Source: Vicinamibacterales bacterium
GTDB taxonomy: Bacteria > Acidobacteriota > Vicinamibacteria > Vicinamibacterales > UBA2999
NCBI GenBank assembly: GCA_036565925.1
Contig: DATCXH010001115.1
Coordinates: 1 to 35,968 of the forward strand
Length of the DNA: 35,968 nucleotides
Direction: 5' to 3'
Shown here: piece after piece, positions 1-20,277 of the stretch
Numbering within the stretch: the first letter of the stretch is position 1
Layout of the letters: each line of letters starts with the position of its first letter
Notes under the pieces: generated by a model
The model's input: the letters and a program-made list of their open reading frames with translations, nothing else
The model's database searches: none
What the model was told of the DNA's origin: nothing
Position numbers and translations under genes: made by a program

Positions 1-627
1 CGGCAGCTGCTCCGCGAGCTCACGACCGACGTTCACAGCCGATCGATGCTCCATCCATCGACGATGTACGGATTGTTCAATCCGTTCTGGTGGGGGCACG
101 TGGATGAGGAGTGGGTGCACCGTTTCGCGAAGTACGAGCGAGTGAACGCCCCTTCCGATGGAGCGGCCGGCTTCAGGTGGCCAGAGCCCGGCACGCCGTA
201 CACGGCCGTGAAGTTCTACTTCAACGACTGCTTTCCGGATACGCCCGAGAACCGCGCCTTCGTGCGTCGCACAGTGCAGGCGCTCAGTGAGCGAGGTCCG
301 CTCGTGTCGCTGGCGACGAATCTGCGGCTCGACGATCACGCCAGCCATGATGCGGAATCGATCGAGGTTCGCACGCTGCCACACGACATGCACCCGCGCG
401 ACAACCTGGCGTTGCAGACGGCCATCGTCGCCGGCGCGTCGGCGTTCGTTGGTACATATGGCGGTTTCTCGTATCTCGCGCCTTTCTTGAACGTGAGATC
501 GACCGCGTACTTTTCCGACGCCAGCGGTTACTCGGCGCGGCACCTGCTGATGGCGCGTTCTGCGCTCGAGTCGATCGGTACAGGGGGGTTGCTCGAGGTG
601 CGGCCGTCTGGAGTAAGCGGAGTATGA
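1..627 (+). CDS. 5'-truncated CDS for a GT9-like (heptosyltransferase-fold) putative glycosyltransferase; paralog of 6468..7643
   Basis: Frame 1 is open from base 1, so the ATG at 46 is probably internal. The product aligns by eye with the C-terminal half of the 6468..7643 product (LHPSTMYGLFNPFWWGH vs CHPSLMFRLFRNVWHGN; AIVAGASAFVGTYGGFSYLAPFLNV vs ALIARARFFLSACGGLAWQAPFMGV). The last motif resembles the GT9 C-terminal 'li..a.l.ig.DSG..HlAaalg.P' region. Confidence 0.6.
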   Translation, partial: RQLLRELTTDVHSRSMLHPSTMYGLFNPFWWGHVDEEWVHRFAKYERVNAPSDGAAGFRWPEPGTPYTAVKFYFNDCFPDTPENRAFVRRTVQALSERGPLVSLATNLRLDDHASHDAESIEVRTLPHDMHPRDNLALQTAIVAGASAFVGTYGGFSYLAPFLNVRSTAYFSDASGYSARHLLMARSALESIGTGGLLEVRPSGVSGV

Positions 628-2942: not shown

Positions 2943-4526
2943 ATGCGGGTGCCGCCGGCGGTGGTCGGCGCGGCGGTGATCGCCGGAGTGGCAACCGCCC
3001 TCGTCCGCTTTCTCGGGCTGGAAGGCTTCTCGAACGATCACTTTCAGTACCTCGCCGCTGCGCAGCAGATGCGGCTCGGTGAGTGGCCCACACGCGATTT
3101 CGCCGATCCCGGGATGCCGCTGATGTATGCGGCCTCGGCGGCTGCGCAAATCGTCTTCGGCCATTCGCTCTTTGCCGAAGCGATGCTGATGGCCATCGTC
3201 TACGGAGTGACGTCGACGCTGGTCGTGATCGCGGCGTGGCGGGCATCGCGATCGTGGGTTGTTGCCGTGCTGGCGTGTGTGCTGTGCGTCATGGCGTTTC
3301 CGCTGCCGGCCAGTTATCCGCGCGCGTTGTTGTACGCCCTTGGTCCGCTGGCGATCTGGGCGTGGGTTCGTCAGCCAACCGGCCCTCGTCTCTTTCTCAT
3401 TTCCCTTGTTGTCTGCGTCGCGTATCTGTTTCGGCAGGAGCATGGTCTCAATCTTGGGCTGGCCGCGATCGTCACCGTGGCTCTTGCACCTGGCGACGCA
3501 CGGGTCATGAAGACGCGTCTGATGACGCTCGGTGTGCTCATCCTGCTGGTGAGCCTGCCGTACGCCGTGTATATCCAGCGCAGCCAGGGAATCTTGAGCG
3601 CTTCAGTGAGCTCATGGGAGTTCAGCCGGCGTGAGGCCGACCGCACGGCGCTCCACCTCGCCGCGTATGGCTCGGGCGATGCCGTACGGCTCTACTACTT
3701 GTTTCATGCGCTGCCACTGATTGCCGCCGCCGTCGTTGCGTTGAATGTCCGACGCGGACGGACCGAGGACGCGTTGATGGGCGCGCCACTCGTGGTGTTA
3801 GCGTTTCTCGCCAACATGAACTTCCTTCGCGATCCGCTGCCGGTGCGTCTGCCGGACGCGATCGTGCCGGCGGTGCTCGTCGCAGCGTGGCTGGCGGGAC
3901 GCGCATTGCGCGTGCCCTCGTTGCCGCTGCGATCGGTCGCGCTCACTGGGGCCGCGGTGCTCATGTTCATCGGGGCCTCGTCAGTCGCGGTGGTCGGCCG
4001 CACGCAGGAGAATCTTGCCCGCACGAATCTGAGTGTCGGACTGTCATCGCTCCCGCAGCTCGTACGCGATCGGACCGCCCAGCTGAAATCCCGGTACGAT
4101 CGGCAGCAGCTACCCGACGGTCGGATCCTGTCCCTCGTCGGCCTGTTCGACTACCTCGATCGCTGTACAACCCCGAGTCACCGATTGCTGGTTGCCGGCA
4201 ACGCGCCGGAAATCTACGTGTACGCACAGCGTCCGTTCGCGGCAGGCCATAGCACTTTTCTCGAGGGCTACTACCAATCCGAATCGGAACAGCAGCAGAT
4301 GCTCGATCGCGTGCGACAGCAGGTGGTCGCCTTCGCACTGATGCTGAGCGATCAGGAGTCGTCGTTCCGTTCAACGGCGCCGGGCGTGAGTGCGTTTGTC
4401 GCTGCCAACTTCCAGCCGCTGACCGAGATACCCACGAGCAGCGATCGAACGGTTCGCGTCCTGGTCCGCAGTGGATTGCCTCCGCTTCACGCGGATACGA
4501 CGACAGGGTGGCCATGCTATCGGTAA
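2943..4526 (+). CDS. Polytopic membrane protein, GT-C-like architecture (paralog 1 of 4)
   Basis: I take the ATG at 2943 (MRVPPAVVGAAVIAG...), just after the upstream stop, as the start rather than the track start at 2847. It has TM1, then NDHF (3033..3044) and GEWPTRDF, then about 10 more hydrophobic segments. The soluble C-terminal domain carries RLLVAGNAPEIYVYAQRPFAAGH..F..GYY. These motifs are shared with 7640..9544, 13544..15214 and 15216..16847. Confidence 0.8.
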   Translation: MRVPPAVVGAAVIAGVATALVRFLGLEGFSNDHFQYLAAAQQMRLGEWPTRDFADPGMPLMYAASAAAQIVFGHSLFAEAMLMAIVYGVTSTLVVIAAWRASRSWVVAVLACVLCVMAFPLPASYPRALLYALGPLAIWAWVRQPTGPRLFLISLVVCVAYLFRQEHGLNLGLAAIVTVALAPGDARVMKTRLMTLGVLILLVSLPYAVYIQRSQGILSASVSSWEFSRREADRTALHLAAYGSGDAVRLYYLFHALPLIAAAVVALNVRRGRTEDALMGAPLVVLAFLANMNFLRDPLPVRLPDAIVPAVLVAAWLAGRALRVPSLPLRSVALTGAAVLMFIGASSVAVVGRTQENLARTNLSVGLSSLPQLVRDRTAQLKSRYDRQQLPDGRILSLVGLFDYLDRCTTPSHRLLVAGNAPEIYVYAQRPFAAGHSTFLEGYYQSESEQQQMLDRVRQQVVAFALMLSDQESSFRSTAPGVSAFVAANFQPLTEIPTSSDRTVRVLVRSGLPPLHADTTTGWPCYR

Positions 4527-4546
4527 CCGCAGAGCGGCGTCGGGAC

Positions 4547-5983
4547 ATGACGACTGAATCCGCTCTCGATCGTTCCACACGGTGGACCTGGCTGTCCTAC
4601 GCGTACGCGGCACTCGTGGTCACCGGTCTCAGCTATCTGCTGTTCGACATTCCGATTCAAGTGTCGGACAGCTATGGCAATTTGGTTCAGGCATCGGGCC
4701 GCACGCTCGGCCAACTCGTCTACGACCAGTTCCACGCGACTGGATTTCTGCGGCCATTCCTGTGGGGCCACATCCGGGTGGTGTACGACCTCTCAGGCGG
4801 GAACTACCACGCATGGTTTCGCGGCTGGCACGTGGGTCAGGTCGTAGTGCTCACGATTCTGTTCATGCGGCTCGTGAAACCGCGGACGGCTGCGGGCGCG
4901 GCGGCGGTGACGATTGGTCTTGCTGCGTTGATCGGGCTACACACCTTTGCCGGCACGATTCTCGAGGCGTTTCCCATCAACGCCTACATGACGATTCTGA
5001 TTTGCTGCTATCTCGCTGCGGACCTCGCACTTGGCGCTCCGCGCTGGTGGCGTGATGTTGCGGCCGCGGTGCTGTTCATCTTTGCGGCGCTCAGCGTCGA
5101 GAGCGGGCTGCTGATCGCAGTCGTGCTGGTCGCCGCCTTCCTGTTCGGCGCGCGGGGTGTCTCGCGATGGGCGATAGCGGCCATCGTGTTGCTCGTCGTC
5201 GGATATCTTGGGCTGCGTTTTGCCGTGCTCGACGTCGGCACGCCGGGTCTGACCGAGCGCAGCTCCGGGTTCGGATTCGCGATACTCGATCCGAAGGATC
5301 TCGAGAGCCGGTTCGGCGCACACCCCAGCGTGTTCTATCTCTACAACATCGGTACAGCGCTGCTGTCGGTGCTCTTCTCGGAACCGCGTGCCGGTGTGTG
5401 GACTGCGACTCGTAACTTTCTCTACGGCGACGAGCTGTCAATCGCACTGCTTGCCAATCTGATCGCCTCAGCGATGGGTACGCTCGTCCTCGTCTGGTAC
5501 GCGTGGCATCGTCGCACGGACTGGGTCGCGCGGCGGTTTACCCGCGACGACCAACTGATGGCGATCTTCGTGGCGGTCGCGGTCGCCAACGCGGTGATTA
5601 GCTATGCATACACCAAGGACGTGATTCTCAGTCCCGCCGGGATCTTCTACGCCGCCGCGCTCGCGGCAGCCGTAAAAACGCTCATCGAGTCGACCTCGCT
5701 CTCCGCGCGTCGCATGCGCGTTGCCGCCCTGACGATGTTTCTGGTCGTGTTATCGGGGGCGTGGGCATTTCGCGCGGTGGCCATTCACATTGCGCTGCGC
5801 TCGGAGGCGACCAGCGTCCGCAACGAGTGGGTCTATATCGATGAGTGGATCCGTGAGCAGCGGCTGAACCCCGACGCCACGGGACTCGCGCTCAAGCAGC
5901 GGCTCCAGACCGATGCGATCGTGACGCATCCGGTACGGCCGGAGGTGATCGGTGACTGGCTTGAATGGTTCCGTGAGCCCTGA
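4547..5983 (+). CDS. Polytopic integral membrane protein of unknown function (candidate polymerase, flippase or GT-C-type enzyme)
   Basis: Long ORF with many hydrophobic segments (LSYAYAALVVTGLSYLLF, VVVLTILFMRLV, LLIAVVLVAAFLF, and others). Start is ATG 4547, or GTG 4508 / ATG 4514 overlapping the upstream stop. No soluble catalytic motif recognised. Confidence 0.72.
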   Translation: MTTESALDRSTRWTWLSYAYAALVVTGLSYLLFDIPIQVSDSYGNLVQASGRTLGQLVYDQFHATGFLRPFLWGHIRVVYDLSGGNYHAWFRGWHVGQVVVLTILFMRLVKPRTAAGAAAVTIGLAALIGLHTFAGTILEAFPINAYMTILICCYLAADLALGAPRWWRDVAAAVLFIFAALSVESGLLIAVVLVAAFLFGARGVSRWAIAAIVLLVVGYLGLRFAVLDVGTPGLTERSSGFGFAILDPKDLESRFGAHPSVFYLYNIGTALLSVLFSEPRAGVWTATRNFLYGDELSIALLANLIASAMGTLVLVWYAWHRRTDWVARRFTRDDQLMAIFVAVAVANAVISYAYTKDVILSPAGIFYAAALAAAVKTLIESTSLSARRMRVAALTMFLVVLSGAWAFRAVAIHIALRSEATSVRNEWVYIDEWIREQRLNPDATGLALKQRLQTDAIVTHPVRPEVIGDWLEWFREP

Positions 5984-6458
5984 GCGTCGCGTCGCGCTGC
6001 CCGTGCTCATCGCGGCCGCGGCACCGGCCTGTCTGGTCACCCTCGGCGTGATCGTCTTCATGGTGTTCGAGGTGTCGGGACGGACGCTGTCGTCGGAGGG
6101 GCCGGTCCGCAATATCGCGGAGGCGGCGGCGATCGGCAGCGATTCCACGGTCATGCGGTTACTGCAGGCTGGCGAGGACGCCAATCGAGTGGTCGAGGTT
6201 CGTCCCTACGCGATCTCCTCGTCCATTCGACGGGTGAGCGGTGCCGAGGCTGCGGTCTGGAGCCGGTCGATCGAACTGATCACCCTGCTCGATCGCTTCG
6301 GTGCGATCAGCGAGCCGGAGAACCGGCGCAGGCTGACCTGCCTGGCTGCCGACCTGCGCGTCGAGGACGTCCTCGAGTACCTCGCGCCGAAGGGCGCAGC
6401 GTGGTGTGTCCCGGGTCAGGTAGTCGCGGAAATCGAGGCTCGCTCGCGTGACAAGTAG
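5952..6458 (+). CDS. Small membrane-anchored protein with degenerate ankyrin-like repeats
   Basis: N-terminal TM segment (ALPVLIAAAAPACLVTLGVIVFMVF), then EAAAIGSDSTVMRLLQAGEDAN and two weaker repeats resembling the ANK consensus (AA..G....V..LL..GA..N). The GTG start overlaps the upstream gene; an alternative in-frame GTG lies at 5973. Confidence 0.5.
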   Translation: MTGLNGSVSPERRVALPVLIAAAAPACLVTLGVIVFMVFEVSGRTLSSEGPVRNIAEAAAIGSDSTVMRLLQAGEDANRVVEVRPYAISSSIRRVSGAEAAVWSRSIELITLLDRFGAISEPENRRRLTCLAADLRVEDVLEYLAPKGAAWCVPGQVVAEIEARSRDK

Positions 6459-6467
6459 CGTGGACGC

Positions 6468-7643
6468 GTGAGCGCATTCGACGCGCTGCGCAATGTTGGC
6501 TTCAAGGTCGACCGGCGGCTGCAGTCTGCGCCGAAGCCGCTGGTACGTGCGATGCGGCGTCATTCGCGCGCGCAGGAGCATCGCGCGTTCCGGCGCGAGG
6601 CGGAGGCGATCGATCGCGAGATTGCCACACTTGCCGCCACGACGCATCCGATCGTGGTCGGACCGTGGCTCGCCGAAGTCGGCTATGAAGTCCTCTACTG
6701 GATTCCATTCCTCCGCTGGTTTCAGGACGCCTTCGGCATCCCGCGCGATCGATTGATCGTCGTCTCTCGGGGCGGAATGGAGTCGATGTATCGCGATTTC
6801 GCCGCGGGCTACGCGGACATTTTCGACCTGACGACCCCGCAGCAACTCGCGGCACGTAACGCACAGCGCCGATCGGAAGGTGAGGGCGGCGGACAGAAGC
6901 AGTCGGCGACGAGCACACTGGACGAGGAGCTCATTGCGGCGGTGCGTTCGACGCGCGGCCTCGGCGAGGTCGCCGTCTGTCATCCCTCGTTGATGTTCCG
7001 GCTGTTCCGCAACGTGTGGCACGGCAACCTGCCGTTCGATCTGTTGTGGCGCCGGACGCGTCACGTAGCCGTCGGCCGCTCCAACCGGACGGGCGCTGCG
7101 GCACGTGCTCTGCCGCCGGGTATCCCCGACGACTTCATTGCCGCAAAGATTTACGCGGGACCTGCGCTGTCCACGCACGAGAAGACACGCGAGGCGGTGC
7201 GCGCCGTGGTGACTCAAGCAGCGTTGATCGCGCCAGTGGTACTCCTCGAAACCGATCTCGGGATCGACGAGCATCGCGACTTCGATCTCGACGGCATCCC
7301 CAACGTCATCAGTGCCCGTTCGCTGATGTCGCCGCGGACGAACCTCGATACGCAGCTCGCACTGATTGCGCGCGCGCGCTTTTTTCTCAGCGCATGCGGC
7401 GGGCTGGCCTGGCAGGCGCCGTTCATGGGCGTGCCCACGGTGGCGATCTACGACAGCGACAGTCTCTTGGCGCCACACCTGTTCGTCGCGCGGCACGCGG
7501 GGGCGCTGACCGGTGCCGCCGAGTTCACGTCAGTGGACCTGCGAGGCCTCTCGCGCGTCGGTCTCGCAGGGCCACTGACCCTGAGCGAGCGCTCGTCAGG
7601 CCGCCGGTTCGACGAGAGCGAGTCGAAGGGCATCACCAAATGA
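6468..7643 (+). CDS. GT9-like (heptosyltransferase-fold, GT-B) putative glycosyltransferase
   Basis: IVVGPWLAEVGYEVLYWIPFLRWF is an N-terminal beta-loop-helix like that of GT9. The C-terminal LALIARARFFLSACGGLAWQAPFMGVPTVAIYDSD resembles the GT9 donor-binding region. Paralog of the partial CDS 1..627. Preferred over the antisense ORF 6159..7496. Confidence 0.75.
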   Translation: MSAFDALRNVGFKVDRRLQSAPKPLVRAMRRHSRAQEHRAFRREAEAIDREIATLAATTHPIVVGPWLAEVGYEVLYWIPFLRWFQDAFGIPRDRLIVVSRGGMESMYRDFAAGYADIFDLTTPQQLAARNAQRRSEGEGGGQKQSATSTLDEELIAAVRSTRGLGEVAVCHPSLMFRLFRNVWHGNLPFDLLWRRTRHVAVGRSNRTGAAARALPPGIPDDFIAAKIYAGPALSTHEKTREAVRAVVTQAALIAPVVLLETDLGIDEHRDFDLDGIPNVISARSLMSPRTNLDTQLALIARARFFLSACGGLAWQAPFMGVPTVAIYDSDSLLAPHLFVARHAGALTGAAEFTSVDLRGLSRVGLAGPLTLSERSSGRRFDESESKGITK

Positions 7644-9544
7644 AAGCGCGGTTGGCGATCGGAGCGCTGGCGCTTGCGCTGCTGACGGTCGCGTATCGCT
7701 ACCTCTCATTCACCGATTTCGCCAACGATCACTTCGTGCATCTCTCGGTTGCGCAGCAGATCACCATGGGCGATCTGCCGGTGCGTGATTTCGTCGAACG
7801 CGGACTGCCGCTGATGCCGCTGATCTCAGCGGCAGGTCAGGTGCTGTTCGGCGAAGGTCTGCGCTCCGAGTTGTGGGTCATCGCGATTGCGTACGGCGTC
7901 GCCGCAGCGCTCTCCTACGTGGTGGCGCTGCAGATGTCGGGCGCGGCGGCGATTGCCGCGCTGACCGCGCTGATGCCGGTCGCTGTGTATCCGGTCACCT
8001 ACAGCTATCCGAAGCTGTTGGTTCCGGCGCTTGGCAGTGCGGTCGCGTGGTGGTATTGCGCGAGGCCGGACACGGTGCGCGCCGTGTTGATGTCCGTGGC
8101 CGTCGCCGCAGCGTTTCTCTTTCGCCACGACCTCGGCGTGTTTCTCGGCGTGAGCACGATTGCGATGATGCTCGCGTATCACGGCGTCAGCCGTGCGACG
8201 CTCGTCTCTGTCTCACGCGTCGTTGCGGTCGCCACGCTGATCGTGGCTCCCTATCTCGTCTGGGTGCAGGTCTTCGAAGGGCTCGGCACTTACGTGCGTG
8301 AAGGGATGGTCTTCTCGGAGCGCGAGGCGCAGCGGGCCAACTGGTGGACGCCGCCAAGGTTCGCAGTCGATTCGAGCCGACCACTCCTCGAGCCCCTCGC
8401 GCACGGACCAGTGATCAACGTCCGGTGGCAGCCGAACGCGTCTGAGGCCAGCATCGCCGACGCCGAAATCCGTCATCGACTCGTGCGTCAGTCCCTGAAC
8501 TCGCCACAGAGTTGGACCTACGAAATGCGTCGATGGTCCACGTCTGACATCGAGCGGCTGGTGAAAGATCCGCTCGCAGCGGACACGCAGGGTATTGACC
8601 GGTCCGCATTCCGCGTGCAGGTGTCTGCGCCGGGCGGCCTCGAGAGCTGGTTGGTCAACGTCTATGGGCCCGGGGAAGGCATGCGCCTTCGCGCCAACGC
8701 CACCGCCGCGCTGTTCTATCTCGTGTGGCTCGTGCCCATCGTGGCGGCCGCGGTTTTGGCCGGGACCTGGTCGACATCGACACCGACAAGTCGCGCGTTG
8801 GTCACCCTGTCGCTGGTCATGCAGTTCGCGATGAATCTCACGATGCTGCGTGACCCGATCGAGACGCGGATTCGCGACGTGCTGGTCCCCGCCTCGCTGC
8901 TGATGGCGTGGCTTGCGGGTCTTGTCTGGCAAGTCAGGTCGACCGGCATCGACTGGCCAGCGACGGCATCCCTCCGATCGACGGTCGTGCGCAGGTTGGC
9001 CGTCGCCGTTGTCCTCGTGATGATCGTGGCGGGGACCGCCGCCGTTGGTGATGCCTCAACGCAGATTGAACGTACCAACATCGCGAACGGCATCGACGGG
9101 ATCAATCTGCGCCTGCGGACGATTCGACGGGTGCTATCGCCTCCGGATCAGCGCACCGGACAACTGTCGCCCGCCTACCGCACGCTGGTGACGTCGCTGG
9201 TGCGCTGCACGTCGCCGGGCTCGCGATTGCTCACCCTGACCTTCGCGCCCGAGGTCTTCTTCTACACGCACCGCGCCTTTGCCGGCGGGCACGTCTCGTT
9301 CTCGCCGGGGTACTACACCAGCGATCGCGATGCGACGATGCTGCTGACGCGCGTGTCGTCGGAAGATGTGCCGTTCGTGATCCTCGACAGTCAGACCGAG
9401 GGCGAGATGCTCGGCGACTATCCGCGCATTGGATCGTATGTGCGAGCGAATTATCACGAGGCGTGGCGTGTGCCGCTCACCAGCGAGAAGGCGTTTATCG
9501 TGCTGGCGCGCAACGATCGCGCGGAATGCGCTCGGCTAGAATGA
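7640..9544 (+). CDS. Polytopic membrane protein, GT-C-like architecture (paralog 2 of 4), with an extra loop domain of about 110 aa
   Basis: The ATG at 7640 overlaps the upstream TGA (ATGA). The protein starts MKARLAIGALALALL..., with NDHF at 7724..7735 and GDLPVRDF. The C-terminal domain carries RLLTLTFAPEVFFYTHRAFAGGH..F.PGYY. The track ORF start at 7016 is an upstream read-through in the same frame. Confidence 0.8.
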   Translation: MKARLAIGALALALLTVAYRYLSFTDFANDHFVHLSVAQQITMGDLPVRDFVERGLPLMPLISAAGQVLFGEGLRSELWVIAIAYGVAAALSYVVALQMSGAAAIAALTALMPVAVYPVTYSYPKLLVPALGSAVAWWYCARPDTVRAVLMSVAVAAAFLFRHDLGVFLGVSTIAMMLAYHGVSRATLVSVSRVVAVATLIVAPYLVWVQVFEGLGTYVREGMVFSEREAQRANWWTPPRFAVDSSRPLLEPLAHGPVINVRWQPNASEASIADAEIRHRLVRQSLNSPQSWTYEMRRWSTSDIERLVKDPLAADTQGIDRSAFRVQVSAPGGLESWLVNVYGPGEGMRLRANATAALFYLVWLVPIVAAAVLAGTWSTSTPTSRALVTLSLVMQFAMNLTMLRDPIETRIRDVLVPASLLMAWLAGLVWQVRSTGIDWPATASLRSTVVRRLAVAVVLVMIVAGTAAVGDASTQIERTNIANGIDGINLRLRTIRRVLSPPDQRTGQLSPAYRTLVTSLVRCTSPGSRLLTLTFAPEVFFYTHRAFAGGHVSFSPGYYTSDRDATMLLTRVSSEDVPFVILDSQTEGEMLGDYPRIGSYVRANYHEAWRVPLTSEKAFIVLARNDRAECARLE

Positions 9545-9567
9545 ATGACCGTTCACAGCGTCCACGT

Positions 9568-9597
9568 TTCGTAGAGGCGGGTCTTCAAACGCGCCTG
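9568..9597. repeat. REP-like intergenic hairpin repeat, copy 1
   Basis: TTCGTAGAGGCGGGTCTTCAAACGCGCCTG with stem AGGCG/CGCCT. It closely matches the reverse complement of 11421..11453. Located in the 76-nt spacer after paralog 2. Confidence 0.5.
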
Positions 9598-9620
9598 AGA
9601 ACGTTGAGCCAGGAGGACCG

Positions 9621-10400
9621 GTGCCGCAGGTGCAGGATTCGCAAGTAAAGAAGTTCTGGGAGACCCGCGCTCAGGATCAGTCGTTGACTGACGCGGAGGC
9701 GACGCATTCAGACGTCTGGCAGCGTTGGCTCGAGATCGAGACGATCAAGCCGTTTCTCCGCGCCACCGATTCGATGGTGGACGTCGGCTGTGGATCCGGT
9801 TACGCGACGCGCCTGCTGGCGCCGCTGGTTCGCGAAACGCTCGGTATTGATTTCAGCGAGTCGATGATCGAACGGGCGCGGACCGCGGCAGCCGGCAAGC
9901 CGAACCTGCGCTTTGAAGTCGGCAATGCGCTCGACCTCGACCCGAAGGCGCTCGGGACGTTCGACGTCGCACTGTCTGTGCGTTGTCTGATCAATCTGGA
10001 GAGCTGGGATCGACAGCAGCGTGCGATTGAAAACATCGCCAGGCTGCTCAAGCCCGGTGGGCGGTTCATCTTCGTCGAGGGGCTCGCTGACGGCCGGCGC
10101 AACCTGAACGCGATGCGCGCGCAGATGGGCCTTTCGGAGATGCCGACGGTCTGGCACAACGTCGACTTCGAAGAGTCGCAGTTGTTGCCATTCCTCGATC
10201 GCTTGTTCACGCTCGATGCCCGTCGTCATTTTGGTGTCTACGACTTCGTCTCACGCATCGTCCATCCGATGGCCGTCGCGCCCGAGTCGCCCGTCTACGA
10301 CTCGGCCATCAACCGTACCGCGGCGCAACTGGCGGTGCAGCTCCAGGACTTCGGATCGGTGAGCCGCGTGGCGTTTCTCGTGCTCGGGCGGCGAGGCTGA
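9621..10400 (+). CDS. Class I SAM-dependent methyltransferase
   Basis: VDVGCGSGYATRLLA (motif I) and LLKPGGRFIFVE (post-motif). The GTG start is preceded by AGGAGG 4 nt upstream. Confidence 0.85.
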   Translation: MPQVQDSQVKKFWETRAQDQSLTDAEATHSDVWQRWLEIETIKPFLRATDSMVDVGCGSGYATRLLAPLVRETLGIDFSESMIERARTAAAGKPNLRFEVGNALDLDPKALGTFDVALSVRCLINLESWDRQQRAIENIARLLKPGGRFIFVEGLADGRRNLNAMRAQMGLSEMPTVWHNVDFEESQLLPFLDRLFTLDARRHFGVYDFVSRIVHPMAVAPESPVYDSAINRTAAQLAVQLQDFGSVSRVAFLVLGRRG

Positions 10401-11416
10401 TGGCAGATCGATCGACGGTCATCGTGACGGGCGGCGCCGGGTTCATCGGTTCGGAGCTCGTCCGTCAGCTGGCGGAACGCGGCGAGCGCGTTGTCATCAT
10501 CGACAACCTGGTCAACGGCAAACGCGAGAACGTCGCGAACGTGCTGTCGCCCGATGTGATCCTTCAGGTGAGTGACGTGCGCGACACTGATGCTGTGGTC
10601 CCGCATCTGCGCGAGGCCGGCATCGTCTATCACCTCGCATGCCTGGGAGTGCGCCACTCCGTGCATTCGCCTCAGGAAAACCACGATGTCAACGCGACCG
10701 CGACGCTGAAGCTGCTCGCGGCGGCGCGACAGGCCGATGTCCCGCGCTTCGTGTATGTGTCGAGCTCAGAGGTGTATGGGGGCGTCGAGTTCACGCCCAT
10801 TCTCGGTGACGCGATCAGCGAGGATCACCCGGCATTTCCCTGCACGGTGTACGGCGGGTCCAAGCTGGCCGGCGAGTCCTACACGCGCGCATACTTCCGC
10901 ACCTACGGCTACCCGACGGTCGTCATCCGTCCGTTCAATACGTATGGGCCGCGTTCGCATCACGAAGGGGACAGCGGGGAAGTGATTCCCAAGTTCCTCC
11001 TGCGTTGCCTCGCCGGCCGGCCGATGATCGTGTTTGGAGATGGTTCGCAGTCGCGCGACTTCACGTTCGTGAGCGATACCGCGGCAGGCATTCTGCTCGC
11101 GGGCGATCATCCGAAAGCGGTCGGCGAAACCATCAATATCGGCTCGGGTACCGACGTGAGGATTGCAGACCTGGCGAAGACGGTCGCGTCTGTCACAGGC
11201 CGGCCAAATGCCGAGATCGTGTACGACGAGCCGCGACCAGGCGACGTGTATCGCCTGATTGCCGATGTCTCTCGCGCTCGCGGCCTGCTCGGGTTCGAGC
11301 CTCGAGTGTCGATGGCTGACGGCCTGCAGCGTCTCCTGCAGTGGTATCGCGATCAGAAGAAGAGCCCCGAAGAACTTCTCGAGCAGGAAGTCGTCCGCAA
11401 TTGGATTCCTGCCTGA
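10400..11416 (+). CDS. NAD-dependent nucleotide-sugar epimerase/dehydratase (extended SDR)
   Basis: VTGGAGFIGSELV, SSSEVYG, YGGSKLAGE (YxxxK) and PFNTYGPR. The ATG shares one base with the upstream TGA. Confidence 0.9.
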   Translation: MADRSTVIVTGGAGFIGSELVRQLAERGERVVIIDNLVNGKRENVANVLSPDVILQVSDVRDTDAVVPHLREAGIVYHLACLGVRHSVHSPQENHDVNATATLKLLAAARQADVPRFVYVSSSEVYGGVEFTPILGDAISEDHPAFPCTVYGGSKLAGESYTRAYFRTYGYPTVVIRPFNTYGPRSHHEGDSGEVIPKFLLRCLAGRPMIVFGDGSQSRDFTFVSDTAAGILLAGDHPKAVGETINIGSGTDVRIADLAKTVASVTGRPNAEIVYDEPRPGDVYRLIADVSRARGLLGFEPRVSMADGLQRLLQWYRDQKKSPEELLEQEVVRNWIPA

Positions 11417-11420
11417 CAAG

Positions 11421-11453
11421 CAGGCGGGTCTGAAGGCCCGCCTCTACGACGAA
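11421..11453. repeat. REP-like intergenic hairpin repeat, copy 2 (inverted relative to copy 1); possible terminator/attenuator-like stem without a U-tract
   Basis: CAGGCGGGTCTGAAGGCCCGCCTCTACGACGAA with stem AGGCGGG/CCCGCCT (extendable with one G-U pair). Lies in the 36-nt spacer between the SDR and aminotransferase genes. Confidence 0.5.
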
Positions 11454-12622
11454 TGAGCAACACGACCGCGCCGATCCCCGTTGCACGACCCTGGCTCGAC
11501 GAGCGTGACGCGGAGGCTGCCCGCCGCGCCATCTTGTCGGGATGGGTGACACAAGGGCCGGAAGTCGCCGCATTCGAGCGTGAGTTTGCCATCGCCGTCG
11601 GTGCGCCGTATGCCTGCGCGGTCTCGAGTTGTACGACAGCGCTGCATCTCGCGCTCCTCGCCGTCGGTGTTGGTGCCGGCGACGAGGTCATCACCGTCAG
11701 CCATTCGTTCATTGCGACGGCGAACGCCGTCCGCTACTGCAATGCGATGCCGGTGTTCGTGGACGTGACGGCCGACACGTTCAACATCGATCCGTCCCTC
11801 ATCGAGCCGGCGATTTCCGATCGGACCAAGGCCATCCTTGTTGTGCATCAACTCGGTATGCCGTGCGAGCTGCCGCCGATCCTCGCACTCGCCGGGCGCC
11901 GCGGCATCCCGGTGATCGAGGACGCCGCATGCGCGATCGGCAGCGAGGTGCTGTGGGACGGGACGTGGGAACGAATCGGCAAGCCGCACGCTGACATCGC
12001 ATGTTTCTCATTTCATCCGCGCAAACTGCTCTCCACGGGCGATGGCGGGATGTTGACGACGCGCGATGAGAAGCTCGACGCCACGTTTCGGCTACTGCGT
12101 CAGCACGGGATGACGGTGCCTGATACCGTACGTCACGCCTCGTCGCAGGTCGTGTTCGAGCAGTACTCGGTTCCGGCGTACAACTACCGCATGACCGACA
12201 TTCAGGCCGCGATCGGTCGCGAACAATTGAAGCGCCTGGCGGCAATCGTCGAGCGGCGTCGCACGTTGGCGGCCGCGTATGCCGAGTGTCTTCGCGGCAT
12301 TCCCGGTGTGATTCCGGCCGCTGAGCCCGAGTGGGCGCGCACAAACTGGCAGAGCTATACCGTCCGCCTGCGGCCGCCGCTCGAGCAGCGACGGGTGATG
12401 CAGCGCTTGTTAGACGAAGGCATTTCGACGCGCCGCGGTGTGATGAATGCGCATCGTGAACCGGCGTATCCCGCAGGATCGTGGCGGGCGCCGGGCCCAC
12501 TGACGCGCGGTGAGCAGGCGCAAGACACTGCGATCGTGCTGCCGCTCTACCACCAGATGACTGACGAGGATCAGCAGCGGGTGATCGCGGCACTCAGGCG
12601 TGCCGTGTCGCGTGAAGGGTGA
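11453..12622 (+). CDS. DegT/DnrJ/EryC1/StrS-family PLP-dependent sugar aminotransferase (ArnB-like)
   Basis: SSCTTALHLALLAVGVGAGDEV, VIEDAACAIGS and FSFHPRKLLSTGDGGM (PLP lysine context). Length is 389 aa. Confidence 0.92.
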   Translation: MSNTTAPIPVARPWLDERDAEAARRAILSGWVTQGPEVAAFEREFAIAVGAPYACAVSSCTTALHLALLAVGVGAGDEVITVSHSFIATANAVRYCNAMPVFVDVTADTFNIDPSLIEPAISDRTKAILVVHQLGMPCELPPILALAGRRGIPVIEDAACAIGSEVLWDGTWERIGKPHADIACFSFHPRKLLSTGDGGMLTTRDEKLDATFRLLRQHGMTVPDTVRHASSQVVFEQYSVPAYNYRMTDIQAAIGREQLKRLAAIVERRRTLAAAYAECLRGIPGVIPAAEPEWARTNWQSYTVRLRPPLEQRRVMQRLLDEGISTRRGVMNAHREPAYPAGSWRAPGPLTRGEQAQDTAIVLPLYHQMTDEDQQRVIAALRRAVSREG

Positions 12623-13569
12623 TGATTTCCATCCTCACACCGGCGTTCAACGAATCCGTCAACCTCGAGAATCTCCACGCACGTCTCTCGCAGACGATGG
12701 CGCAGCTCGGGGAGGAGTGGGAGTGGCTGATCGTTGACGACCATTCGCGCGACGACACGTTCGCGGTCGTGCAGCGTCTCGCGCTGATCGATTCACACGT
12801 GCGCGGCATCCGGCTCGCCCGCAACCGCGGATCGCACGTGGCGATTACCTGCGGCCTGCATCACGTGCGCGGCGACGCCGCAGTGATGATGGCGTCGGAT
12901 CTGCAGGATCCACCCGAGACGCTCGGTGCGCTGCTGCAGAAATGGCGCACCGGCGCGCAGGTCGTCTGGGCGACGCGGCGCGAGCAGCCCGGCGAAGGAA
13001 CGCATGCCGGGTTTGCCTCGATCTACTACTGGATCATGCGGAACATCGTCGGGATGAAGGAGATTCCGTCGCGGGGTGCCGACTTCTTCCTTATCGATCG
13101 CGTGGTCATCGATGCGTTCCGTCGCTGCGACGAGCAGCACGTCAACGTGTTTGCGTTGATTACCTGGCTCGGATTCCGACAGGAGTACATCGAGTACGAC
13201 AAGCAACCGCGCGTGGCGGGGCGATCCGGCTGGACGATCGCTCGCAAGATCAAGCTGGTCGTCGATTCGATTACCGCGTTCTCCGATGCGCCGGTCCAGG
13301 CCTGCTGGCTGCTCGGCGCGGCGCTGATGGTCATTGGCTTCCTTTCCATTGTCGTTGGCTTGAGCGTGTTCGAGAGTTTGCAGGCCGCCGTCGTGGTGCT
13401 GCTCGGCGCGATTGCCGGCGGCACCGGACTTGTGCTGTGCGCGCTGGCAATGCTCGGCGAGTACGTGTGGCGCGCCCTCGATCAATCGCGGCGCCGGCCG
13501 CTGTATCTCATCGAGGCTACCGCCGGTCCAACCGCCACGTTCGATGGTCGACCGTCCGCGCGTCTCTGA
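12619..13569 (+). CDS. GT2-family polyprenyl-phosphate glycosyltransferase (ArnC/GtrB/DPM1-like)
   Basis: ISILTPAFNES and LIVDDHSRDDT (DxD region) in a GT2 catalytic core, followed by two C-terminal TM helices (ACWLLGAALMVIGFLSIVVGL, VVVLLGAIAGGTGLVLCALAMLG), as in ArnC/GtrB. GTGA overlap with the upstream stop; an alternative ATG lies at 12622. Confidence 0.88.
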   Translation: MMISILTPAFNESVNLENLHARLSQTMAQLGEEWEWLIVDDHSRDDTFAVVQRLALIDSHVRGIRLARNRGSHVAITCGLHHVRGDAAVMMASDLQDPPETLGALLQKWRTGAQVVWATRREQPGEGTHAGFASIYYWIMRNIVGMKEIPSRGADFFLIDRVVIDAFRRCDEQHVNVFALITWLGFRQEYIEYDKQPRVAGRSGWTIARKIKLVVDSITAFSDAPVQACWLLGAALMVIGFLSIVVGLSVFESLQAAVVVLLGAIAGGTGLVLCALAMLGEYVWRALDQSRRRPLYLIEATAGPTATFDGRPSARL

Positions 13570-15214
13570 GCAGCTCCGACGACCGGTCGTCGTCGCCGTC
13601 GTTGCACTCCTGCTGTTCGTATGGGTGTTTCTGTACCGTTTCAACACGCTTGGTGGCGCCTTCGGCGGGTTCGACAACGACCACTTCCTGCATTTCGTGT
13701 ACGCGAAACAAGTCCAGGCTGGAGAACAGCCGTTGCGCGACTTCATGGACGCCGGTCTGCAGGGCGCACGGCCATCATTGACCTACGAACTCTCGGCGGC
13801 GGCGCAGACCTACTTTGGGAACAATCTGCGATCCGAGGCGTGGCTGACGGTCGGTGGAGTTGCACTCGGTGCGGCAATCGCGTTCGTCGCCGCGAGCATG
13901 ATCGCGCCCTGGCCGTGGGCGTTGTTGACAGCGCTGTTGTCGGCGCTCATCTCCCCCAAGTTGTACGGCTATCCCAAGGTGCTGGTGACCGCCGTGGCGT
14001 CGCTGCTCATCGTCTGTGCGTCACGGCTGCCACCCCGAACGCGGGTCGCGGTGATGAGCGCGTGGACCGCCATCGCGTTTCTGTTCCGCAACGACTACGC
14101 AATCTACTGCGTCGTGGGTTTTGTCGTTATCACGGTCTGTGCCGCAACGGCGTCGTGGCGCGATCGCCTGACGCAGGCGGCCGCCTATCTTCTGTTGACT
14201 GGAGTGCTGCTGGCACCCTCGCTGTGGTGGGTGCAGCACTATCGAGGACTCACCGAGTACGCGCGCAACGGTCTCGAGATGAGCCGCAACGAGGCTTCAC
14301 GGACGCGCATTGGTTGGCCCCGGCTTTCGCTCGAGCACGGCCTGCGGTCCGTTATCGAAGACGAGGACAACGCGAAAGCCTGGATCTACTACGTCTTCCT
14401 CGCTGTGCCTCTCGTGGTGATCGGCGTGACGGCGAAGCACGCGATGCAGGGCAGGCACGAGCCACACGCGCCGGTTGCCGCGCTGCTGGCGCTGAGCGTG
14501 ATGACGATGGTGCTGTCGCACTACTTCCTTCGGGGCAATCTGGCCGCACGGTTTGGCGATATGGGACCGCCGATGGCGGTCCTTGCGGCGTATCTGCTCT
14601 TCGTGTCGACGAGAGGGCTCATCGACCATTGGCTGCGTGCGCTGCCTGGCGCCATGATTGCGATCGCCGTCTTCGGCATGACCGTGATGTGCACGTGGCA
14701 GATGGCGAGTGTCAGCAGCGAACTGCGAACCGGCCGTTTGCTCGAGCTGCCAGGCGATCTGTTCGAGCGGACGCGGCGCGCGTCCCAGGAACTCCTCGCG
14801 ATGCCGCCTTCATTGCGCGAGCAGGAAGGTGCCGGTCGCATGCAGGCCTCGGCGTACCTCCATCAATGCACGAAGACAACGGATCGCGTGGTGGTCATGG
14901 GCTATGCCACCGATGTGATCGTCTTCGCCGAACGGCTCTTCGGCGGCAGGCGTGCGAGCTTCGTCCCTGGCTTCTATGCCGACGACCGCTACTCACGCGA
15001 AACGGTCGCGTCGCTGCAATCCACCTCTGTTCCCATCGTGCTGGGCAGCAACCTGTTCGATGACGGGCAAATGCCGGTGATTGCCGACTACCTGCGCTCA
15101 CACTACGAGGAGGCGGGAAAGGTGCGGTTCTACGAGAGCGAGCTGCGCGTGCTCGTGCGCCGCGGTCTTGCCGGACAGCCGCTTGGTCCCGGAGGTCTGC
15201 CATGTTTCGGATGA
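13544..15214 (+). CDS. Polytopic membrane protein, GT-C-like architecture (paralog 3 of 4)
   Basis: Chosen start is the ATG at 13544 (MVDRPRVSEQLRRPVVVAVVALLLF...). NDHF is at 13676..13687, followed by GEQPLRDF, FLFRNDY and MSRNEASR. The C-terminal domain carries RVVVMGYATDVIVFAERLFGGRRASFVPGFYADDRY and the protein ends GLPCFG. It is highly similar to the next gene. Confidence 0.8.
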   Translation: MVDRPRVSEQLRRPVVVAVVALLLFVWVFLYRFNTLGGAFGGFDNDHFLHFVYAKQVQAGEQPLRDFMDAGLQGARPSLTYELSAAAQTYFGNNLRSEAWLTVGGVALGAAIAFVAASMIAPWPWALLTALLSALISPKLYGYPKVLVTAVASLLIVCASRLPPRTRVAVMSAWTAIAFLFRNDYAIYCVVGFVVITVCAATASWRDRLTQAAAYLLLTGVLLAPSLWWVQHYRGLTEYARNGLEMSRNEASRTRIGWPRLSLEHGLRSVIEDEDNAKAWIYYVFLAVPLVVIGVTAKHAMQGRHEPHAPVAALLALSVMTMVLSHYFLRGNLAARFGDMGPPMAVLAAYLLFVSTRGLIDHWLRALPGAMIAIAVFGMTVMCTWQMASVSSELRTGRLLELPGDLFERTRRASQELLAMPPSLREQEGAGRMQASAYLHQCTKTTDRVVVMGYATDVIVFAERLFGGRRASFVPGFYADDRYSRETVASLQSTSVPIVLGSNLFDDGQMPVIADYLRSHYEEAGKVRFYESELRVLVRRGLAGQPLGPGGLPCFG

Positions 15215-15215
15215 C

Positions 15216-16847
15216 GTGGTGATCCGCCGCGGAGTTGTGCTCGCGGTCGTTGCGGTCCTGCTGTTCGCATGGGTCTTTCTATATCGCTTCAACACGCTCG
15301 GCGGCGCACTCGGGGGGTTCGACAACGATCATTTCCTCTACATGACGATCGCCAAGCAGGTACAGGCGGGCGAGCAACCGCTTCGCGACTTCATGGATGG
15401 CGTGCATGGCGCGTGGCCTTCGTTGACCTACGAGTTCTCTGCCGCTGCGCAACGGCTTCTCGGCAACAACCTTCGTTCAGAGGCGTGGCTGACCGTCGGT
15501 GGCGTTGCACTCGGCGCGACAGCGACGTTTCTCGCCGCCAGTCTGATCGCGCCCTGGCCTTGGGCGCTGTCGACGGCGGTAGTGTCGGCACTGTTGTCGC
15601 CCAAGCTCTACGGATATCCCAAGGTCGTCGTCACCGCGTTCGCCGTTCTGCTGATCATCAGTTACGCGCGGCGTCCGATATGGGCGCTGCTCGTCGCAAT
15701 GAGCATCTGGACCGCGGCCGCGTTTCTCTTCAGACACGATTACAGCGTTTACTGCGCGGTCGGCTTCGGTGCGGTGATTGGTCTGGCTGGCGACACTCCA
15801 TGGCATCGTCGCATCACACGTGGCGTCGTCTACGGTCTTCTCACCGCCCTCCTGCTGGCGCCATCGCTATGGTGGATTCAGCGCTATCGGGGGATCGGCG
15901 AGTACGTGCGCAACTCCCTGGAGATGAGCCGCAACGAGTACGAACGGACGCAGATCGGTTGGCCCGTCATCACGCCCGATGGTCTATCGCCGTTCGCGAT
16001 ATTCGGCACCGACGAGAATGCCGAGGCGTGGATTTACTACATGTTTGCCGGCGTCCCGCTGGCCGTGCTGGTGCTCAGCGCATGGAAGGTGCGCAAGCCA
16101 CCGACCAATCCCGATGCCGTCGCGCTCATCGCCGTCAGCCTGATGACAGCGGCGCTGTGGTACTCCTTCCTGCGTGGGAACCTGTCGGCGCGCTTCGGCG
16201 ATATGGCGCCACCGGTCGCCGTGCTCGGTGCGTTTCTACTCTTTCGAAGCACCAGCGGTTGGCCATCGCGGCGTGCGATGTTCACAACGGCGCTCGCTGT
16301 GGCCGGGTTCGTACTGACCGTATTGTGCGCGTCCCGTACGGGCAGTGTCGTCAGCGAACTGTGGACGTCGCGTCTGCTCGAGCCTCGTGACACGTTGGCG
16401 CGCATGTCACACATCTCCACTGAGCTGGCCGCGATGCCACAGTCGCTGCGTGAGGCCCAGGCGGCAGATCGGATGCAGGCCGCCGATTACCTGCACCGCT
16501 GCACGCGGCCGACCGATCGTGCGCTGGTTGTCGGCTACTACACCGACGTGCTGGCGTTTGCCGAGCGGCTGTTCGCTGGTGGACGAGCGGCATTCGTCGT
16601 GGGGTTCTACGCCGACGATCGCTACATGCGGGAGACGATCGCCAGGCTCGAGTCGCAATCGGTGCCCATCGTGCTTGGTGGTGCCGAAGTCGACTACCAG
16701 GAGTTCCATCTCCTCGGCGATTACCTTCATGCTCGCTACGACCATGTCGGCGAGGTCTCGTCGAGTGAAGGCCCACTACGGGTGTTCGTGCGTCGCGGAC
16801 GCGTCGGTACACCATCCGGACCCAATGGGCTTCCGTGCTTCGGATGA
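15216..16847 (+). CDS. Polytopic membrane protein, GT-C-like architecture (paralog 4 of 4; tandem duplicate of paralog 3)
   Basis: GTG at 15216 or 15219, immediately after the upstream TGA (15212..15214). NDHF is at 15324..15335, followed by GEQPLRDF, FLFRHDY and MSRNEYER. The C-terminal domain carries ALVVGYYTDVLAFAERLFAGGRAAFVVGFYADDRY and the protein ends GLPCFG. Confidence 0.8.
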   Translation: MVIRRGVVLAVVAVLLFAWVFLYRFNTLGGALGGFDNDHFLYMTIAKQVQAGEQPLRDFMDGVHGAWPSLTYEFSAAAQRLLGNNLRSEAWLTVGGVALGATATFLAASLIAPWPWALSTAVVSALLSPKLYGYPKVVVTAFAVLLIISYARRPIWALLVAMSIWTAAAFLFRHDYSVYCAVGFGAVIGLAGDTPWHRRITRGVVYGLLTALLLAPSLWWIQRYRGIGEYVRNSLEMSRNEYERTQIGWPVITPDGLSPFAIFGTDENAEAWIYYMFAGVPLAVLVLSAWKVRKPPTNPDAVALIAVSLMTAALWYSFLRGNLSARFGDMAPPVAVLGAFLLFRSTSGWPSRRAMFTTALAVAGFVLTVLCASRTGSVVSELWTSRLLEPRDTLARMSHISTELAAMPQSLREAQAADRMQAADYLHRCTRPTDRALVVGYYTDVLAFAERLFAGGRAAFVVGFYADDRYMRETIARLESQSVPIVLGGAEVDYQEFHLLGDYLHARYDHVGEVSSSEGPLRVFVRRGRVGTPSGPNGLPCFG

Positions 16848-17403: not shown

Positions 17404-18327
17404 ATGATTGATTGCATTGCGGGTTATCACCTGAATCCCTGGACCTGTGGAATCGCCAAATTCAACGCGATTCTCGCCAAATATCTCGGGGTTCCGGTGG
17501 TTGGACTCGGCGCTGTCGAGCTCGGCAGTCACAGGCGCCCGTTGCTCTCGATCAAGCTGTCGGAGTTCAGCTCGGCTGATGCCGCCGAGCTGGATCTCTG
17601 GGCGAGTTCGAGAGCCGGTGAGTTCGAATTGTTTCTGCACGCGTTCGACGGAACCGAGGTCGAGCAGCGTCTCGTCGCCGCGGCCGCGAAGGTCTATTGC
17701 GGCAACAGTGAGCTCTTCACCGAGCTCCAGACAATGCGCCCCGACATCCAGGAGCTGTTTTGTCCCGGCACGATTCTGAATCCGCAGCGGTTCCAGCGGA
17801 CGGAGCTGTCGGTGTTCACGTTCGGCATGGCGCACAAAATTCGCGTGCCGCTCTATCGCCGACTGCACGATCTGCTCGAAGCGACCGGGCAGAGCTACTC
17901 GGTGTACGTGTCAACGGCGCTCCATGAGAACACCAGCTTCGATGGCTCCTTCGTCGTGCGGTTCGAGGAGCTCCAATCGATCTTCAACGGACAGGTCTAC
18001 TTCATGGGGTACCTGTCCGATACGGCGGTCTTCAATCACCTGATGGACTGTACGTTCCTCGCCGCCTTCTTCGAGAAGGGCCTGCGCGCGAACAACACGA
18101 CCGTGAATGCGGCAATGGAAGTCGGCTGTGCGGTGATCACCAACCTTGACGAGCACTCGCCGGTTGGCCTGGCCCACATGCACAACGTGATCGACATCAA
18201 TCTCTGCGAGCGTCTGCCCGATACGGAGCAGACGCAGCGCATCGGCCGCGCCGCACGCGAGATCGCGCACGGCCAATACGGATGGGACCAGCTCGTCGCG
18301 CAGCTGCGGCCCGTCGTTCGAACCTGA
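17404..18327 (+). CDS. Divergent GT-B-like putative glycosyltransferase
   Basis: The C-terminal half resembles the GT1/GT4 donor domain (VYFMGYLSDTAVFNHLMDCTFLAAFFEKGLRANNTTVNAAMEVGCAVITN). It is preceded by a 71-nt, visibly lower-GC spacer. Preferred over the antisense ORF 16855..17868. Confidence 0.65.
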   Translation: MIDCIAGYHLNPWTCGIAKFNAILAKYLGVPVVGLGAVELGSHRRPLLSIKLSEFSSADAAELDLWASSRAGEFELFLHAFDGTEVEQRLVAAAAKVYCGNSELFTELQTMRPDIQELFCPGTILNPQRFQRTELSVFTFGMAHKIRVPLYRRLHDLLEATGQSYSVYVSTALHENTSFDGSFVVRFEELQSIFNGQVYFMGYLSDTAVFNHLMDCTFLAAFFEKGLRANNTTVNAAMEVGCAVITNLDEHSPVGLAHMHNVIDINLCERLPDTEQTQRIGRAAREIAHGQYGWDQLVAQLRPVVRT

Positions 18328-20258: not shown

Positions 20259-20277
20259 AGCACGGAGGCTTGACGGC

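Follow-up and report, generated by a model that had tools for sequence, protein, structure and literature searches.

A stretch of 35,968 nucleotides (nt) from a soil bacterium of the Vicinamibacterales (assembly GCA_036565925.1, contig DATCXH010001115.1), hereafter the window, meaning the whole stretch that was analysed, was found to encode four paralogous polytopic membrane proteins, named P1 to P4. These are likely to be glycosyltransferases of the GT-C(A) type that use polyprenyl-phosphate sugars at the periplasmic face of the membrane, a judgement that applies to the mechanism class as a whole. That they possess the GT-C fold is, going by the predicted structure of P1, nearly certain. Lipid A, O-antigens, cell-wall arabinan and glycoproteins are all products or substrates of GT-C enzymes, which assemble or modify them, and the P family is an undescribed sequence family of this well-known enzyme class, lying outside Pfam and NCBIfam and involving no new mechanism. 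The four genes are as follows, with lengths in amino acids (aa); residue numbers are those of P1 unless another paralog is named.

2943..4526, + strand: P1, P-family member, 527 aa (NDHF at 3033-3044, RDF at 3093-3101); clean translation, AlphaFold2 model, Foldseek
7640..9544, + strand: P2, P-family member, 634 aa (NDHF at 7724-7735, RDF at 7784-7792); translation, alignment, BLASTP
13544..15214, + strand: P3, P-family member, 556 aa (DNDHF with N at 13676, RDF at 13736-13744); translation, alignment, BLASTP
15216..16847, + strand: P4, P-family member, 543 aa (DNDHF with N at 15324, RDF at 15384-15392); translation, alignment, BLASTP

The reading frames of P1 to P4 are uninterrupted at these coordinates and their mutual alignment spans the whole length, with pairwise BLASTP E values of 1e-15 to 6e-44. 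Judged by sequence the four are true paralogs, as had been claimed in a preliminary description of the window, which ascribed one architecture to them. The motifs common to all four are NDHF, G(E/D)xPxRDF, (F/Y)LFRx(D/E) and those of the C-terminal region. NDHF begins at residues 31 (P1), 29 (P2), 45 (P3) and 37 (P4), and the positions given for it in that description (3033, 7724, 13676 and 15324) were exact; G(E/D)xPxRDF starts 15 residues after the Asn, and RDF starts 20 residues after it, in each paralog. Other motifs described there were found to be shared in a looser form. FLFR(H/Q/N)(D/E) is retained as (F/Y)LFRx(D/E), P1 having YLFRQE, the proposed S(R/E)xEAxR loop reads SRNEYER in P4, and the C-terminal pattern is only loosely common, P3 and P4 possessing T-D where P1 and P2 possess P-E. 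A P-family hidden Markov model (HMM) searched against the six-frame translation of the window matched P1 to P4 and no further copies.

P3 and P4 share 60% identity over their full length (BLASTP), with P4 starting 1 nt past the stop codon of P3, while the start of P3 overlaps the stop of an upstream ArnC-like GT2 gene by 26 nt. Among 78 related loci retained from a species-level genome collection, no match to P3 exceeded 36% identity and, taken with the 60% identity between the pair, this makes P3 and P4 look like the result of a recent tandem duplication. The exact P3 sequence was also looked up in public contigs, which gave no record. In P2, the long periplasmic loop joining transmembrane (TM) helices TM7 and TM8 was found to carry an insertion of ~135 aa (residues about 216-351 of P2), for which no domain was matched. 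The family profile is matched in two stretches by many P-family representatives of 620-690 aa, fitting an insertion in the same region as that of P2 and pointing to a subfamily that possesses an additional periplasmic module. Between 46 and 16847 every gene is on the + strand, neighbours being spaced by -32 to +76 nt, and a reading of these genes as one operon, as put forward in the preliminary description, is plausible on this co-orientation and spacing. A consensus scan of the window for promoters and terminators gave no signal above chance.

The structure of P1 was predicted with AlphaFold2 from an alignment of 54 sequences, resulting in a model with a predicted local distance difference test score (pLDDT) of 93.3 and a predicted template modelling score (pTM) of 0.92. 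The model contains 11 TM helices in all, TM1 spanning residues 5-25 and ten more following the helices of the first loop, where the preliminary description had put one TM helix and about 10 further segments and had given 11-13 as the hallmark of GT-C enzymes. The first periplasmic loop contains two helices (31-44 and 59-72), the former having Asp32 at its N-terminal tip. TM7 and TM8 are joined by a long loop (215-245) that contains a helix at 217-234 and a conserved S..E..R motif, and a C-terminal alpha/beta domain covers residues of about 393-527. The GT-C(A) core has been described as a characteristic arrangement of TM helices together with a first long extracytoplasmic loop holding two juxtamembrane helices, of which the first is tipped by an Asp essential for catalysis, a helix-bearing long loop between distal TM helices that acts as a donor gate and, often in prokaryotic members, an alpha/beta periplasmic cap (PMC10265970, PMC12041299). 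The P1 model fits this published anatomy in its TM helices, first loop and C-terminal domain, including the placement of the NDHF residue Asp32 at the position of the catalytic Asp (PMC12041299), and its helix-bearing loop after TM7 is a candidate for the gate.

Comparison of the P1 model to the Protein Data Bank (PDB) using Foldseek gave 50 listed matches, the best 18 of which were all GT-C enzymes, namely ArnT, AftA, DPY19, yeast and human STT3, PglB, EmbB, AftB and ALG9 (probability 0.99-1.00, template modelling score (TM-score) up to 0.51). The best of these was ArnT (5f15; E = 4.9e-6, TM-score 0.51), with ALG3 and Pmt1 found lower in the list. This supports the GT-C assignment made in the preliminary description. 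The next fold class, consisting of the major facilitator superfamily (MFS) and other transporters, had a probability of <0.3 and a TM-score of 0.11, and on this score a transporter reading was dropped. A reading as Wzy, O-antigen ligase (WaaL) or a member of the shape, elongation, division and sporulation (SEDS) family such as RodA was also set aside, there being no Pfam match to these and no such structure among the 50 matches listed. Comparison against viral structures was uninformative.

Residue conservation was counted over about 256-272 members of the P family. In NDHF, D32 is conserved in 255/256 and N31 in 240/256, and in G(E/D)xPxRDF the values are G46 258/260, P49 259/260, R51 245/260 and D52 257/260, so that the acidic residues to which the preliminary description had drawn attention are near-invariant among homologs. 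Further conserved positions are R164 (269/270), R296 (264/273), R302 (269/273), D305 (264/273), R430 (266/271) and F432 (263/271), and all four paralogs retain the complete set of conserved charged periplasmic residues. Two cysteines of the C-terminal domain, C408 (271/271) and C525 (268/268), are invariant and suggest a disulfide on the extracytoplasmic side. In the mean of 245 members, the net charge is +0.8 to +2.7 for the predicted cytoplasmic loops and -2.7 for the first loop. This positive-inside bias places the NDHF/RDF loop and the C-terminal domain outside and supports, as a prediction, an N-in topology, in line with the orientation proposed earlier.

Neither P1 to P4 nor the 54 P-family members gave a match above threshold in Pfam or NCBIfam. 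Matches below threshold were to DUF6044, by P4 only (20.5 bits against a cut-off of 27, residues 176-327), and to PMT_2, touched by 2/54 members (E = 0.014); no confident match to a family other than GT-C was thus obtained. A profile of the 54 members searched against PDB sequences identified nothing but a noise match to AcrB. Public homologs of the P family are without names, except for five that JGI annotates as '4-amino-4-deoxy-L-arabinose transferase-like' and one, from a metagenome-assembled genome (MAG) of the Vicinamibacterales, that NCBI lists as a 'hypothetical protein'. The statement that the motifs belong to no named GT-C family therefore holds for curated HMMs, with these few 'ArnT-like' labels originating from the JGI pipeline. 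Literature searches on GT-C enzymes of Vicinamibacter and on DUF6044 found no description of the P family.

Upstream of P3 lie three genes that may bear on the donor sugar:

10400..11416, + strand: NDP (nucleoside diphosphate)-sugar 4,6-dehydratase-like short-chain dehydrogenase/reductase (SDR), LegB/RmlB-like; HMM searches, with the triad of dehydratase, aminotransferase and GT2 conserved in related loci
11453..12622, + strand: DegT-family sugar aminotransferase, PseC/ArnB-like; Pfam 2.6e-108, NCBIfam PseC 4.5e-92 and ArnB 1.9e-79
12619..13569, + strand: GT2 polyprenyl-phosphate glycosyltransferase of the ArnC/PgfS/GtrB type, 316 aa, with C-terminal TM helices; Pfam Glycos_transf_2

Over its full length the GT2 matched the NCBIfam models of PgfS (3e-48) and ArnC (1.4e-35), in each case short of the curated cut-off, and it shares 28% identity with E. 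coli ArnC over 311 residues including the C-terminal TM region (E = 2e-37). It is presumed to make the lipid-linked donor, and the dehydratase possibly catalyses the first step to the donor sugar or to a nonulosonic acid. Elsewhere in the window are genes for NeuB, a PseF-like cytidylyltransferase, an SDR and a nucleotidyltransferase-methyltransferase fusion, together with one GT4, two further GT2s and an initiating transferase that resembles WecA/MraY. The pairing of a GT2 with a P-family protein was also identified elsewhere. One representative protein (P0139) is a fusion of the two, and a 2.2-Mb metagenomic contig (L080) carries an isolated pair of an ArnC-like GT2 gene and a P-family gene, overlapping by 4 nt, amid unrelated genes. 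Among P-family loci of at least 20 kb, an ArnC-like GT2 was found within 10 kb in 14/41.

A general model in which a GT2, a flippase and a GT-C act together is established for the Gtr, Arn and pentofuranose systems (PMC11127046). The analysis of P1 to P4 shows their paralogy, motif conservation and gene context along with their predicted fold and topology; their activity, donor and acceptor, the roles of their residues and the division of labour among the paralogs we infer as follows. At the cytoplasmic face, the ArnC/PgfS-like GT2 would load a sugar from a nucleotide sugar onto polyprenyl (undecaprenyl) phosphate, possibly starting from a precursor of the 4-amino-4,6-dideoxy-hexose type provided by the neighbouring 4,6-dehydratase and aminotransferase, and the lipid-linked sugar would be flipped by a flippase encoded outside the window. 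At the periplasmic face, each paralog would bind the polyprenyl-phosphate sugar in a groove that the first periplasmic loop and the loop after TM7 form with the TM bundle. Catalysis would fall to Asp32, at which the first juxtamembrane helix begins, with Asp52 of RDF assisting and R164, R296 and R302 holding the phosphate leaving group, while the C-terminal domain, probably disulfide-bonded, would cap the site and help to select the acceptor. The WecA-like, GT4 and GT2 enzymes of the locus would build a surface glycan, to which the paralogs would add the sugar or sugars at different positions or in different linkages; candidate acceptors are a glycan, a protein or lipid A.

A number of observations weigh against this scheme. 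The P family has no match at threshold to a curated HMM or PDB sequence, and alignment of its profile to E. coli ArnT with hhalign was weak (E = 0.0047, probability 7.5%). In this alignment 'GF.NDHF..LA.AQQML.GEWP' was paired with a 25-residue stretch of ArnT, with the Asp of NDHF placed on the Asp of ArnT PDETRY, making the match a consistent lead but no proof. Approximately two thirds of the P-family loci of at least 20 kb do not have an ArnC-like GT2 within 10 kb. No ORF (open reading frame) for a flippase of the GtrA, small multidrug resistance (SMR), MATE or Wzx-like type was identified in the window, including by a hydropathy search for small flippase ORFs, the sole multi-TM ORFs being P1 to P4, a further membrane protein termed M5, 20230-21474 and the WecA-like gene. 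Furthermore, the dehydratase and aminotransferase may serve a nonulosonic-acid pathway, with NeuB and the PseF-like enzyme nearby, rather than the lipid-linked donor.

The same fold and chemistry would apply if the acceptor were protein, with P1 to P4 acting as periplasmic O-glycosyltransferases like PMT or PgfM1/PgfM2 that transfer a monosaccharide from polyprenyl phosphate to Ser/Thr-rich envelope proteins such as S-layer proteins, pilins or adhesins. In the O-glycosylation of streptococcal proteins PgfS, the best NCBIfam match of the adjacent GT2, has an epimerase and two GT-C paralogs as partners (PMC12041528). The weak PMT_2 matches of two P-family members, the presence of Pmt1 among the Foldseek matches and the fusion of one P-family representative to a Ser/Thr kinase domain point in the same direction. 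The PgfS score of the GT2 (164.6 bits) is however far under the model cut-off of 500, giving no orthology, and the Pgf GT-Cs are YfhO-domain proteins, whereas no YfhO match was found in Pfam searches of P1 to P4 or the 54 members. As the WecA-like initiator, GT4 and GT2 of the locus fit a lipid-linked glycan acceptor, and no candidate target protein was identified, protein O-glycosylation is considered unlikely.

Less probable still is that P1 to P4 use polyprenyl-diphosphate-linked oligosaccharides, as an oligosaccharyltransferase (OST) or ligase (PglB/STT3-like, or WaaL/PglL in function) transferring them en bloc to protein or lipid. STT3 and PglB are among the significant Foldseek matches (E = 5e-5 to 6e-4), and the WecA-like initiator and cytoplasmic glycosyltransferases of the locus could build an undecaprenyl-diphosphate-linked oligosaccharide. 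Against this, the WWDxG motif that PglB and STT3 (GT66) carry in their C-terminal domain was found in none of P1 to P4, leading to a PglB-type OST being dropped, and the best structural matches, ArnT and AftA, are monosaccharide transferases. The coupling or fusion to GT2s of the monophosphate-sugar synthase type also speaks against it, at least four paralogs per locus would be atypical of an OST or ligase, and WaaL, Wzy and SEDS proteins are missing from the Foldseek matches listed. The sequence similarity of the P family to characterised enzymes is negligible, and a GT-C-like fold might have been kept by proteins that are no glycosyltransferases, serving as a scaffold, a component of polymerisation or export, or a transferase of something other than sugar. 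With the GT-C(A) catalytic-Asp position conserved in 255/256 members, the charged periplasmic set complete in P1 to P4, transporter folds aligning at a TM-score of 0.11 only and a context saturated with sugar-activating enzymes, such a role is highly improbable.

A second family of polytopic membrane proteins is represented in the window by the gene following P1:

4508..5983, + strand: M5, 491 aa, without a C-terminal domain; no Pfam or NCBIfam match

M5 has 687 homologs, one of which (P0315) consists of an ortholog of the window GT2 (65% identity) fused to an M5 domain, and in related loci M5 genes are interspersed with P-family genes. The AlphaFold2 model of M5 (pLDDT 82.7) matched ArnT, STT3, AftD and EmbC in Foldseek with a probability of at least 0.96, but with an E value of 9e-3 and a TM-score of about 0.4. 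Comparison of the P and M5 families with hhalign showed no homology, and M5 was dropped as a fifth P paralog; it probably represents another enzyme of the GT-C-like kind whose sequence family is unrelated to P. While the four copies of GT-C-like proteins named in the preliminary description were confirmed, M5 was missed there, and the locus thus probably holds more GT-C-like machinery than had been seen.

A profile search of 1.84 billion representative proteins, clustered at 50% identity, gave 3,602 P-family clusters at E <= 1e-3 and 1,041 at E <= 1e-30. One metagenomic representative of 898 aa (P0163) combines a Ser/Thr protein kinase domain at its N terminus with a P-family domain behind it and could be a true fusion or a gene-calling artefact. 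The 78 related loci derive almost entirely from MAGs of Vicinamibacterales or unclassified Acidobacteriota, with several P paralogs per MAG. Three of the loci carry other taxonomic labels and may be binning errors.

These loci share a conserved frame, composed upstream of the cytidylyltransferase, g0046, the SDR and the nucleotidyltransferase-methyltransferase, and downstream of the dehydratase, aminotransferase, GT2, a gene like that at 17404, NeuB, an SDR and an aldehyde dehydrogenase (ALDH). Between the two parts lies a block with varying counts of genes of the P, M5 and 6468 families. In the closest relatives (L001, L002 and L004), the flanking proteins are mostly 79-98% identical to those of the window and P1 orthologs were found at 83-91% identity. 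All three carry at least one M5-like gene that is absent from the window (compared at 2943-5983), situated between the P1 and M5 orthologs in L001 and L002, with more copies in L004. The nearest relatives of P4 were found in two other loci, L003 (52%) and L005 (46%), and are likewise downstream of the GT2 ortholog. The differences in M5-like genes between such close relatives and the lack of a P3 match above 36% identity show that the variable block turns over quickly, like O-antigen-type loci.

It is possible, albeit doubtful, that the P, M5 and 6468-7643 families form a lineage-specific combinatorial toolkit of Vicinamibacterales for diversifying periplasmic glycans, in which cassettes are gained, duplicated and lost between the conserved flanks of a nonulosonic-acid/amino-sugar locus. 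In the boldest form of this proposal, the donors would be unusual lipid-linked sugars, e.g. amino-dideoxy or nonulosonic ones. If true, the toolkit would produce strain-specific surface glycans and would be a counterpart of O-antigen seroconversion that relies mainly on lipid-linked donors and multiple new GT-C families. The presence of several paralogs per genome in a fast-changing block suggests that the cell surface diversifies strongly, with possible consequences for interactions with phages and predators and for soil aggregation.

Other genes of the window were noted alongside these families. The product of 6468-7643 (+ strand) is a soluble protein of 391 aa with no Pfam or PDB sequence match, encoded within the variable block and multi-copy in related loci (five in L048). 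The 193-aa product of 46-627 (+ strand) has a C-terminal G-x-x-G-G...A-P-F motif in common with it (by eye), and the two may represent an unrecognised glycosyltransferase-like family. A 307-aa protein with no Pfam or PDB sequence match is encoded at 17404-18327 (+ strand), with a homolog directly upstream of NeuB in 5/5 related loci that capture both (L009, L014, L017, L067 and L068), and may perform a nonulosonic-acid step, e.g. one that is PseG/LegG-like. The polytopic membrane protein of 20230-21474 (+ strand; 414 aa) has no Pfam match and 78 homologs, none of which is informatively named. It is overlapped by a 799-aa ORF at 20568-22967 (+ strand), whose ALDH domain begins at residue 332; this ORF is an over-call, with the real start of the ALDH gene probably near 21500. 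The gene at 26547-28412 (+ strand), which has a transketolase-like gene on one side and that of the WecA-like initiating transferase on the other, encodes a soluble protein of 621 aa; searches of Pfam, NCBIfam and PDB sequences gave no match to it, and the 78 related loci contain no counterpart. The WecA-like gene itself (28429-30222, + strand) encodes an unusual fusion of an N-terminal WecA/MraY-type (Glycos_transf_4) domain and a C-terminal CoA_binding_3 region, the latter being typical of the N-terminal part of phosphoglycosyl transferases of the WbaP/WcaJ type.

New GT-C families are still founded singly, as they are characterised, with GT136 having been founded in 2024 (PMC11127046). The P family is of value for its size, for being found almost solely in one order of the collection scanned, for the expansion of its paralogs and for the fast-changing architecture of its locus. 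Its motifs and alignment could seed a Pfam or CAZy family and provide better annotation for thousands of 'hypothetical proteins', and the GT2 and GT-C pair of L080 offers a minimal cassette for heterologous characterisation. No study of the envelope glycans of Vicinamibacterales was found in the literature, and the members of this order in the collection scanned are almost entirely MAGs.

Among known systems, the Pgf pathway (PgfS, the epimerase PgfE and PgfM1/PgfM2) resembles the window in combining a PgfS-like GT2, sugar-modifying enzymes and at least two GT-C paralogs in one cluster. It differs in the YfhO domains of PgfM1/PgfM2 and in its acceptors, which are Ser/Thr-rich protein regions of a Gram-positive envelope, and orthology is unsupported. 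The three-component systems (GtrA/GtrB/Gtr* and the GT136 pentofuranose system) share the placing of a polyprenyl-phosphate sugar synthase beside a GT-C by which an exported glycan is modified (PMC11127046). The pair of L080 resembles such a cassette in minimal form. In the window, two-thirds of the layout is present, with no adjacent flippase, and the P family is a different GT-C sequence family that is multi-copy and situated inside a main biosynthesis locus, not in a separate seroconversion cassette.

ArnT (CAZy GT83; PDB 5F15/5EZM), the best structural match, shares with P1 to P4 a polytopic TM domain followed by a C-terminal periplasmic domain and, right after TM1, an acidic residue at the start of a helix and then a G-(D/E)-W-x-P element; the window also contains ArnB-like aminotransferase and ArnC-like GT2 neighbours. 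However, identity in the structural alignment is 12-15%, no PMT_2/ArnT HMM is matched above threshold, and ArnT has 13 TM helices whereas 11 are predicted for P1. No equivalents of ArnA (formyltransferase/decarboxylase), ArnD or ArnE/F were detected in the window, and in place of one ArnT there are at least four P paralogs per locus, making lipid A unlikely as the sole acceptor.

The mycobacterial arabinofuranosyltransferases AftA (GT85), AftB and EmbA/B/C have no detectable sequence similarity to the P family, and they belong to another phylum and envelope type. The P locus is without genes of the decaprenyl-phosphate arabinose (DPA) pathway (phosphoribosyltransferase, DprE1/E2) and the P family is without carbohydrate-binding module (CBM) domains. 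[quoted passage not shown] In the Aft/Emb system, several paralogous GT-Cs act with one lipid-linked donor to form different linkages of one glycan, and this provides the best analogy for the four paralogs of the window.

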